From positions 20,659 to 84,658 of the forward strand of contig NZ_JAWDMQ010000001.1 in the NCBI RefSeq assembly GCF_046536515.1: a stretch of 64,000 nt of DNA. The letters are read 5' to 3'. Each line of letters opens with the position of its first letter. Position 1 is the first letter of the stretch. This stretch comes from Caldisphaera sp. (GTDB taxonomy: Archaea; Thermoproteota; Thermoprotei_A; Sulfolobales; Acidilobaceae). The translations under genes were made by a program, and so were the position numbers. This document shows positions 1,360 through 2,876 of the stretch, in pieces. The notes below the pieces were generated by a model, which was not told where the DNA came from, made no database searches, and was given only the letters and a program-made list of their open reading frames with translations.

Positions 1360-2245
1360 TCTTGAAAAATTTTAAATTTTTATTATATTTTTAAACATTT
1401 TTAAATTAATAGGAGTTCCTTATATATTTTATAATGTTTTCGTATATACTATACTAACAAAATATTAGCAAAATAAATACATTTAAAAAATAATTTTAGA
1501 TAATTAGTATAATTTAGGTGTGCCTAAAAATGGAAAAATATAAATTATTCTGTATATTAGGATTATGTATTCTATTATTATTTTCTATGCCTTTTGCTTA
1601 CTCTAAATCGGGAACTTCCAAATTTATAATCAATCAAACTACATTTAACCTCACCCCAGGTCAAAAAATAAGCGAAGAGTTCCAGCTAATTTTAAGTAGC
1701 GGAAGTACATGGGGCACAAGCATTGTTGTTTCTCCTTCTATAACTGGAATATCAATAATATTTAATCCAAGTAGTGGCGATCCAACTTTTTCTGGTACAT
1801 TAACCATATCGGTTTCAAACAATACTAAGCCAGGAGAATATATATTTAATGTAAGTGCAACTGGAGACGTTCCAACTACTTCTCCAACAACAATTATAGT
1901 TTATGTAAGTTCTCCAGCAGTTACTACAACAACGACTTCAACAACGACTTCACCTCCTCAAACAACATCATATACCTCTCCTACAACTCAAACCGGAGTT
2001 ACTTCAACAAGTCAAAAACATAATAATTATTTTTCATATGTCATAATTATAATGATATTATTAGCTATTATAATAGGGAGTTCATTATATTATACTAAAG
2101 GATTAAAAGCAAACAAATTTGCTATGACAGGCTTATCTGTAATTAGCGTTATATTATCACTTTATCTAATTGTTGCTGATTCAACATTAAGAAATTTTGC
2201 AGCTATTCATTATTATTTGCTTATTATATATACTATAGTATTGAT

Positions 2246-2546
2246 AAAGCAAACGACAAACCTTCCCCTTCTAGGGGCGAGGTAAAGTTTTTTAAGTTTA
2301 GAAACTTATTAAAAATTGAGACAGTTGCTAAAGGGGTATGCGTCACTGAAACATGAGGTACGCCTCTACCCCAACTAACAAGTGTAATAAAATAGGGTTC
2401 CAAGCCGATCAACTCTTAAGGCATGAGGAGCGGGAGCCGATTTCTCCCGCAATATCGGCTTGGAGGATAATAGAGTAGCACCCGTAAAAGGGGTGTAACC
2501 CTTGAGACCTCAGGAAACTCGCCCTTCAGGGCGGGGAGGAGGTCAG
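2246..2546 (+). mobile_element. Non-autonomous IS200/IS605-family miniature element (no tnpA/tnpB)
   Basis: Inserted 3' of TTGAT (2241-2245) with no target duplication. Left-end hairpin CCCCT-TCT-AGGGG. Right-end hairpin CTCGCCC-TTCA-GGGCGGG followed by GAGGAGG-TCAG. GC-rich against an AT-rich background. Excision restores the host ORF. Confidence 0.85.
2301..2313 (+). promoter_or_regulatory. Putative BRE/TATA promoter inside the mini-element
   Basis: GAAAC-TTATTAAA lies about 20-27 nt upstream of the first GC-rich stem (GGGGTA, 2333). Confidence 0.4.
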
Positions 2547-2562
2547 AGCATTAAATCCAATC
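2333..2562 (+). ncRNA. Putative TnpB omegaRNA/reRNA scaffold plus about 16-nt flank-derived guide
   Basis: Stems GGGGTA/TACCCC (2333-2338/2367-2372), TCCAAGCCGAT/ATCGGCTTGGA (11 bp; 2399-2409/2454-2464), GCGGGAG/CTCCCGC, GCACCC/GGGTGT and the RE hairpin. Position at the IS605 right end matches TnpB guide RNAs. Boundaries inferred. Confidence 0.6.
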
Positions 2563-2876
2563 ATGTATATTACAAAAGAAGAGATTAGTTTTACTTTGTT
2601 TAGCATTATTACGGGTTTATTTTTTATAGGTATGCTTATAGATTCACTTATGGGTATGCCCTTTTCATCTTTAGAAAATGTTGGTAGCGGATTTAGTTTA
2701 AATTATTTTTATGGTTTTGGAATGAATGGATTATCAAATTTTTCAATTTCATTTGTTTTTTCTTCTTTATTAATAGTAACGTTTCTTATATTAATTATTG
2801 GCATAATAAGTGTTGTCAAATCAAAAAATTCCGCTAATGTTTGATCATGAAAAAAGATAAAAATTTAATTATTCAA

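Follow-up and report, generated by a model that had tools for sequence, protein, structure and literature searches.

Palindrome-associated transposable elements (PATEs) are protein-less, multicopy sequences that carry the ends of tnpB-bearing insertion sequences (IS), and have been described in Geobacillus stearothermophilus, in relation to ISGst elements (PMC10055086), and in Haloquadratum walsbyi (PMC3119063). PATEs often encode omega-RNAs, which need to be used in trans (Meers et al., 2023, PMC10055086). Further, the sense overlapping transcripts (sotRNAs) of IS1341-type elements, the PATE-derived RNA VNG_R0052 of Halobacterium salinarum and the HgcC RNA of Methanocaldococcus jannaschii were earlier linked to one another (Gomes-Filho et al., 2015, PMC4615843). 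Regarding the TnpB nucleases, clades with a rearranged RuvC-II site (RIIr) have been described (Altae-Tran et al., 2023, PMC10691335), and one enzyme of this class, TvTnpB of Thermoplasma volcanium, has been shown to act as an RNA-guided nuclease that depends on a transposon-adjacent motif (TAM), NTGAC, and has a temperature optimum of 60 °C (PMC10530073). Here we describe a 301-bp element (positions 2246-2546) that interrupts a membrane-protein gene in a 64,000-nt stretch of the genome of Caldisphaera sp.; this whole stretch is referred to as the window and its coordinates are used throughout, while contigs named C1, C3, etc., belong to the same draft assembly (97 contigs, 1.52 Mb). The element is almost certainly a non-autonomous IS200/IS605 derivative, i.e., a PATE or miniature inverted-repeat transposable element (MITE); its insertion was precise and very recent, and it retains a conserved RNA module next to a predicted guide whose target is intact in a natural element-free allele.

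The order at the insertion site is TTGAT (2241-2245), the element, starting with AAAGCAAACGAC and ending with GGAGGAGGTCAG (2246-2546), and AGCATTAAATCCAATC (2547-2562); over a wider stretch the two junctions read ACTATAGTATTGAT / AAAGCAAACGACAAACCTTCCCCTTCTAGGGGCGAGG and CTCGCCCTTCAGGGCGGGGAGGAGGTCAG / AGCATTAAATCCAATCATG. The features of the interrupted locus are as follows:

1518-2245, forward strand: 5' part of the interrupted membrane-protein gene, with its start at GTG 1518 or ATG 1530
2241-2245, forward strand: target motif or TAM, TTGAT (family consensus N-TGAT)
2246-2546, forward strand: protein-less element of 301 bp, almost certainly an IS200/IS605 derivative (MITE/PATE)
2547-2562, forward strand: predicted guide AGCATTAAATCCAATC, the flank directly 3' of the right end, with ~21 nt possible (...ATGTA)
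2547-2844, forward strand: 3' part of the interrupted gene, with a 93-aa open reading frame (ORF) from ATG 2563, 17 nt past the element

The element is GC-rich compared with the genome (31.9% GC) and lies in the same orientation as its host gene. The upstream ORF (1518-2285) enters it for 13 codons up to a stop at 2285, and joining position 2245 to 2547 yields one open frame of 341 aa, which reads ...LIALNPIMY... at the junction (...IVLIALNPIMYITKEE... over a longer span) and carries a 1-nt ambiguity (A/A). The two ORFs (1518-2285 and 2563-2844), the junction sequence and the in-frame fusion were all as given in a first-pass annotation made from the sequence alone. As a side observation, owing to the ATG located 17 nt past the right end, read-out transcripts could still yield the 93-aa membrane fragment.

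Uninterrupted orthologues of 339 aa and 346 aa (76% and 63% identity, respectively) were found in two genomes of the same genus, the gene being present in only these 2 of 40 relatives. The search for such a ~340-aa protein had been proposed in the first-pass annotation, and both orthologues are colinear with the joined frame, with nucleotide and protein alignments that are gap-free across the junction. The synteny is also kept in both congeners, comprising an amidohydrolase gene, the orthologue of the interrupted gene, a 126-aa ORF and an M20 peptidase gene; the peptidase beside the interrupted gene is 87% identical to its counterpart in the metagenome-assembled genome (MAG) KMA_Bin23 of Caldisphaera sp. 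At the target the congeners read TTAAT/AGTG and the window reads TTGAT/AGCA. The motif thus arose by a single A-to-G change (TTAAT to TTGAT) in the lineage of the window before the insertion, the empty allele described below also reading TTGAT.

By scanning metagenome contigs for the 24-nt joined site, we found the contig Ga0080003_1000209, which is colinear with C1:10141-24292 over 13,851 bp with 99.6% identity (55 mismatches) and is gap-free besides the element; the exact 301 bp missing from it constitute the sole structural difference in 13.9 kb. Its empty site reads TTGAT/AGCATT, with zero target duplication, and its ORF is intact, with 3 different residues. Neither the empty-site pattern nor, with the fused protein as query, any protein match was found in the genome-contig collection. 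The insertion was precise and occurred without target duplication; furthermore, because a natural empty allele exists at 99.6% identity, it is very recent and post-dates the ~0.4% divergence of the flanks, as had been proposed from the lack of internal stops in the two halves. A seamless excision in the lineage of the empty allele would be an alternative, albeit a less parsimonious one. The element-free allele carries TTGAT followed by AGCATTAAATCCAATC, that is, both the motif and a full match to the guide, so that the allele predicted as a target does exist in nature.

The interrupted protein displays an N-terminal signal or anchor, a domain of ~100 aa, a linker with 59% Ser/Thr and five hydrophobic segments, and the insertion point lies inside the third C-terminal hydrophobic (transmembrane) segment; a Pfam search with the protein gave zero family matches. 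Of its earlier description as a Thr-rich surface protein, the Ser/Thr-rich linker is borne out, while a surface location is what we infer from the signal peptide, the linker and the five hydrophobic segments. All three differences between the interrupted gene and the empty allele are non-synonymous (3/3, n = 3). The ratio of non-synonymous to synonymous divergence (dN/dS) of the gene halves against the orthologues was 0.29-0.30 in the lineage of the window and 0.18 between the relatives, values that are saturated and come from a sample too small to speak of relaxation.

The element belongs to a repeat family. A blast search of its own genome returned 46 matches, ~29 of them near full length (87-96% identity); besides these long copies, there is a short form of 240 bp. 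Counting the right ends with at least 130 nt of element sequence, the copy number is ~38. All of the ~29 long copies, as well as the tnpB-bearing parents described below, start after TGAT and end in GGTCAG (as in GGAGGAGGTCAG), followed by unrelated flanks. Next to the 43 left ends, T, G, A and T occupy positions -4 to -1 in 42, 38, 43 and 41 cases, respectively, and position -5 is weakly T (22/43). The first-pass annotation had proposed an IS200/IS605-type insertion 3' of TTGAT, which agrees with the ends of the family, the flanking motif and the exact empty site; TTGAT flanks the copy in the window as well as those bearing tnpB on C1, C6, C9, C10 and C30, but a strict TTGAT does not hold for the family, whose motif is NTGAT. 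Both ends carry subterminal hairpins in place of terminal inverted repeats, and the internal ORFs are only 41-59 aa long and chance-like, none being credible. None of 40 related genomes contains the long form, and the right-end ~80 nt alone recurs in 2 of them. Separately, the first base past GGTCAG is A in 74 and G in 4 of the 126 right ends of the genome, the frequency of A being well above the genome content; this excess may reflect an integration or cleavage preference for TGAT/A, or a 1-nt uncertainty of the end.

The size of this family also bears on whether the locus is a transposition product at all. Considering that the genome is a draft of 97 contigs, an assembly chimera, or two naturally separate genes, could be suspected; this reading is refuted by the ~38 copies with identical termini and different flanks, the exact empty site in an independent assembly and the orthologues that are single ORFs, and retains a negligible probability. 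Most copies of the family are intergenic, with only 2-3 of ~38 located in ORFs that removal of the copy restores. The position of the window copy inside a gene is therefore unusual, and fits either its youth or a dispensable gene. An apparent second interrupted gene was observed at C65:3483-3779 (minus strand), where removal of a co-oriented copy restores a frame of 300 aa (253 + 47 codons).

The parent of the family is a ~1.5-kb tnpB-only (IS1341-type) IS with a single ORF of 455-459 aa. Its intact copies number at least five, on C1 (96436-97956, with tnpB at 96486-97865), C3, C30, C54 and C55; all are outside the window, the one on C1 73 kb beyond the insertion. Broken copies are found on C6, C10 and C86. 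In the blast matches one layout recurs, i.e., the left end, the tnpB start, a distance of ~1.3 kb and the last ~80 nt. In this arrangement the MITE comprises the left end, tnpB codons ~5-20, a junction of 12-17 nt, the last 27 nt of tnpB and a right end of 50 nt, and the long form adds a middle segment of ~100-110 bp; the comparison indicates that the element derived from the parent IS by internal deletion. Within the element the following parts were distinguished:

2246-2295, forward strand: left end, common with the tnpB-only parent IS, with the hairpin CCTTCCCC-TTCTA-GGGGCGAGG (~2261-2282) and then an A/T-rich TATA-like stretch
2286-2389, forward strand: middle module, with the TATA-like TTATTAAAAA and a GGGGUA...UACCCC hairpin
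2399-2464, forward strand: MITE-specific stem of 11-12 bp (UCCAAGCCGAU / AUCGGCUUGGA; 2399-2409 with 2454-2464)
2454-2546, forward strand: conserved 3' RNA module (putative omega-RNA scaffold), in which the parent homology starts at 2467

The MITE-specific stem, which shows A-U versus G-U variation between copies, encloses the remnant of tnpB codons ~5-20 (2409-2454), including a GCGGGAG...CUCCCGC hairpin. The right end consists of CGCCC-TTCA-GGGCG and then GGGAGGAGGTCAG. The middle module (2286-2389) is found neither in the parent IS, nor in the 240-bp short form, nor in any tnpB gene. A second family of protein-less PATEs of ~430 bp was also observed at C22:7355-7785 and at ~10 other sites (C5, C16, C17, C28, C33, C37, C57 and C78); it has the left end of a tnpA-tnpB element on C56 (TTACAAC/TGAAAGCC...) and a different interior, and has the middle module in common with the 301-bp MITE (~91-93% identity).

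The conserved RNA module was defined by aligning the 3'-terminal 200 nt of 25 homologous IS copies found in other archaea and of one from the genome of the window. In the 25 foreign copies, structural conservation is limited to the final ~90 nt, which comprise a first hairpin (GUAGCACCC-GUAAAA-GGGGUGUAAC), formed by the eight codons that end tnpB (GUAGCACCC...GGGUGUAAC), as well as a long terminal stem, GACCUC...(CGCCC-UUCA-GGGCG)...GAGGUC-AG. Of its 21 pairs, 96% of cells are paired, compared with 38-61% in slid controls; 3 pairs changed on both sides, and 0/500 shuffles reach the covariation score. The covariation support is thus real but modest, and covariation among the genome's own MITE copies was uninformative, their divergence being too low. 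A covariance model (R1) built from sequences of other organisms only has a single match in the window, which covers the full model and lies at 2454-2546 (86.7 bits, E 5e-20); in the whole genome, the tnpB-linked copies score 97-110 bits and ~60 sites exceed 50 bits. Because the deletion junction (2467) falls just upstream of it, all family-wide conserved structure is kept in the MITE, and the expectation that the element would retain a conserved 3' RNA module adjoining the guide is confirmed. The 167 nt from 2396 to 2562, which include the MITE-specific stem, the module and the 16-nt guide, have a predicted fold of -69 kcal/mol (z = -4.2).

Two further RNA candidates were tried and rejected. 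The Rfam family HgcC (RF00062) scores 24.5 bits at 2436-2559, extending into the guide, and gives 88 sub-threshold matches in the genome (best 42.9 bits); as these lie below the gathering threshold of 50, we consider the element related to HgcC and not a member. For a stem upstream of the module in the tnpB coding region of the own copies (ACAAUAAAGA / UCUUUUAUUGU), RNAalifold gave no family-wide support and the pairing was inconsistent.

The 16-nt guide has one perfect match in the genome, the occupied site itself, which is preceded by GTCAG instead of TGAT, and the predicted target with its TAM is TTGAT+AGCATTAAATCCAATCATGTA. Judged by sequence, the predicted guide and its matching target are real. 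Concerning the nuclease, the parent ORF contains the Pfam domains OrfB_IS605 (PF01385, 103 bits) and Cas12f1-like_TNB (PF07282, 40.6 bits), and a HMMER search of PDB sequences with the parent TnpB returned only Cas12f (E ~1e-3). In the alignment to Cas12f, RuvC-I D247 and RuvC-III D421 are present and Gly stands at the position of the canonical RuvC-II Glu (STIYLGYP); all of the 5 own and 11 foreign homologues compared have D247, G345, E388 and D421, E388 (EYNTS) lying 43 residues past G345. These residues place the parent TnpB in the class with a rearranged active site (TnpB2 or RIIr). The idea of a dead nuclease, based on the Gly at the RuvC-II position, was rejected, since the alternative Glu is invariant and activity has been published for the class. 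SisTnpB1 was likewise discarded as the nearest characterized archaeal enzyme; it has the canonical D-E-D triad, its TAM is TTTAA and it belongs to another class. The five intact tnpB paralogues are maintained by selection, since their dN/dS is 0.12-0.18 at a synonymous divergence (dS) of 0.3-0.76. In line with the first-pass annotation, the genome thus contains intact cognate tnpB genes with TTGAT-flanked copies.

Some observations concern the wider distribution of these elements. TnpB homologues with 67-78% identity and a near-same right-end module occur in Nitrososphaeria, Marsarchaeota, Caldivirga, Thermocladium, Desulfurococcaceae and Acidilobus MAGs, a distribution that points to horizontal spread among archaea of acidic hot springs. 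For a genome of 1.52 Mb the IS200/IS605 load is very heavy, with 37 TnpB zinc-ribbon matches, 126 right-end-like termini and ~60 matches to the putative omega-RNA module, and at least 4 TnpB families are present, canonical D-E-D and Gly-substituted. Only one intact Y1 tnpA gene was found (C56:4721-5077; PF01797, 132 bits; HUH and Tyr motifs), located in the tnpA-tnpB element whose right-end hairpin is near-identical to that of the MITE.

With these components, a guide-RNA mechanism may be proposed in which TnpA moves the element in trans, and transcription through it, from the promoter of the host gene or from the A/T box behind the left end, would yield an omega-RNA with the guide AGCATTAAATCCAATC(ATGTA). 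Such transcription is plausible, given the TATA-like boxes in the element and the orientation it has in common with the host gene. TnpB loaded with the MITE RNA would then cut the TTGAT-flanked empty site in an element-free copy inside the same cell, and the cut copy would be repaired from the occupied one, as in the model of Meers et al. (PMC10055086). If so, the disruption of the gene would be hard to lose. This mechanism in full, i.e., a MITE omega-RNA directing TnpB in trans at the empty site, has in our estimation an even chance of being correct. The "lock-in" of the knockout put forward in the first-pass annotation amounts to the published homing or retention model applied to a PATE; what can be confirmed of it is that the target allele, the module and the nucleases are present.

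The competing reading with most in its favor is that of a passive MITE, which would be only a TnpA substrate: the module would survive through the youth of the copy and because a part of it is the hairpin recognized by the transposase, the guide RNA would not be made, and the insertion would be an ordinary neutral or slightly deleterious one. We regard this as a possible account, with a probability somewhat short of even. Several observations speak for it and weigh at the same time against the guide-RNA mechanism. Along its 301 bp the element is conserved to much the same degree throughout (0.91-0.97), the RNA module showing no additional constraint, although this uniformity by itself does not separate the two readings, and several copies have deletions in the module hairpins. 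The same deletion junction is found in the long and the short MITE form; all of them descend from one event, and the location of the junction at the start of the conserved module counts only once. Of the parent's 3' end, the MITE keeps only ~80 nt, the upstream part being replaced by the MITE-specific stem, and characterized TnpB scaffolds are usually longer than these ~80 nt. For the passive reading alone speaks the mostly intergenic location of the copies, which is what ordinary purifying selection on insertions predicts. To the points against may be added, solely as regards the proposed mechanism, the modest covariation (3 two-sided pairs) and the fact that the TnpA element on C56 differs in its left end and target motif, its mobilization of the MITE being an assumption. 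However, passivity accounts poorly for the first hairpin, which lies upstream of the presumed TnpA site, a subterminal hairpin similar to that of the left end, and is kept with compensatory changes across distant archaea; nor does it readily explain the intact module of the window copy (86.7 bits), the stable stem acquired just upstream of that module, or the intact cognate TnpB genes under selection.

The pair of alleles invites a further interpretation, also raised in the first-pass annotation, according to which reversible TnpA-mediated insertion and excision at TTGAT would act as a phase-variation switch, toggling the membrane protein for the benefit of the host. The excision of IS200/IS605 elements is indeed seamless (PMC10055086), and occupied and empty alleles occur in near-identical genomes; nevertheless, one recent insertion explains both alleles equally well. 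Switching would also require re-insertion at the same site, for which no targeting is known besides TnpB-triggered recombination, and the latter opposes switching. Additionally, the TTAAT of the relatives cannot be targeted, just 2-3 of ~38 copies lie in genes, and the gene has no link to any variable phenotype. We therefore consider the switch very improbable; no support was found for it, and it contradicts the lock-in idea of the same annotation.

A broader extension of the guide-RNA mechanism is that the ~38 MITEs and the ~430-bp PATEs would be guide-RNA-only selfish elements, with the middle module as a portable promoter or 5' domain that makes omega-RNAs independent of tnpB. We hold this to be unlikely. 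Were it true, the pool from at least five parent TnpB copies would defend ~60 insertion sites, including gene knockouts, and guides would far outnumber nucleases.

Compared with the systems described so far, the element represents a further example of an already described kind, a PATE with an omega-RNA module, and does not reveal a new principle. Like the PATEs of G. stearothermophilus and Hqr. walsbyi, it is protein-less and multicopy and has the ends of a tnpB-bearing IS, is inserted 3' of the family motif without duplication, and carries a flank-adjoining RNA module, so that it would depend on TnpA and TnpB in trans. It differs from these in its host, a crenarchaeal thermoacidophile, in the rearranged site of its parent TnpB, in its chimeric nature, with a ~100-bp middle module shared with a second PATE family, and in that occupied and empty alleles are both documented here, with 99.6% flank identity. 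Both tnpB-only elements and their PATEs have a structured RNA at the 3' end, a trait in common with the sotRNAs and VNG_R0052. With the HgcC consensus the element shares a UUCA-tetraloop hairpin followed by GGAGGAGGUCAG, the common motif being CGCCC-UUCA-GGGCG-GGGAGGAGGUCAG, although its score of 24.5 bits is under the gathering score; the motif is in keeping with the connection drawn earlier between HgcC, IS1341 sotRNAs and PATE RNAs.

Regarding the nucleases, TvTnpB and the other RIIr enzymes resemble the parent TnpB in the replacement of the RuvC-II Glu by Gly, in the alternative Glu ~43 residues downstream and in a thermoacidophilic archaeal host, and the TAM of TvTnpB (NTGAC) is nearly the same as the NTGAT of the Caldisphaera family; the Caldisphaera TnpB, however, is another protein family, of 459 aa and with a CHCH-type zinc ribbon, and is known here from its sequence. 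ISDra2 of Deinococcus radiodurans likewise has TTGAT on the 5' side of both its left end and its target, and its guide derives from the flank past the right end; unlike the Caldisphaera element, it is bacterial, has a canonical D-E-D nuclease and is autonomous, with its own tnpA, and its omega-RNA is longer than the MITE module. For a protein-less element, all parts of the retention model can thus be named at this locus, namely both alleles, the TAM and target, the module, the intact TnpBs of the little-studied rearranged-site class, which would act in trans, and the single transposase. They provide a set of substrates for asking whether PATE omega-RNAs work in trans and whether a scaffold of ~80-90 nt is enough for a thermophilic TnpB2. 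What is notable with respect to known PATEs is the documented pair of occupied and empty alleles, the TnpB partner with a rearranged site and the chimeric middle module.

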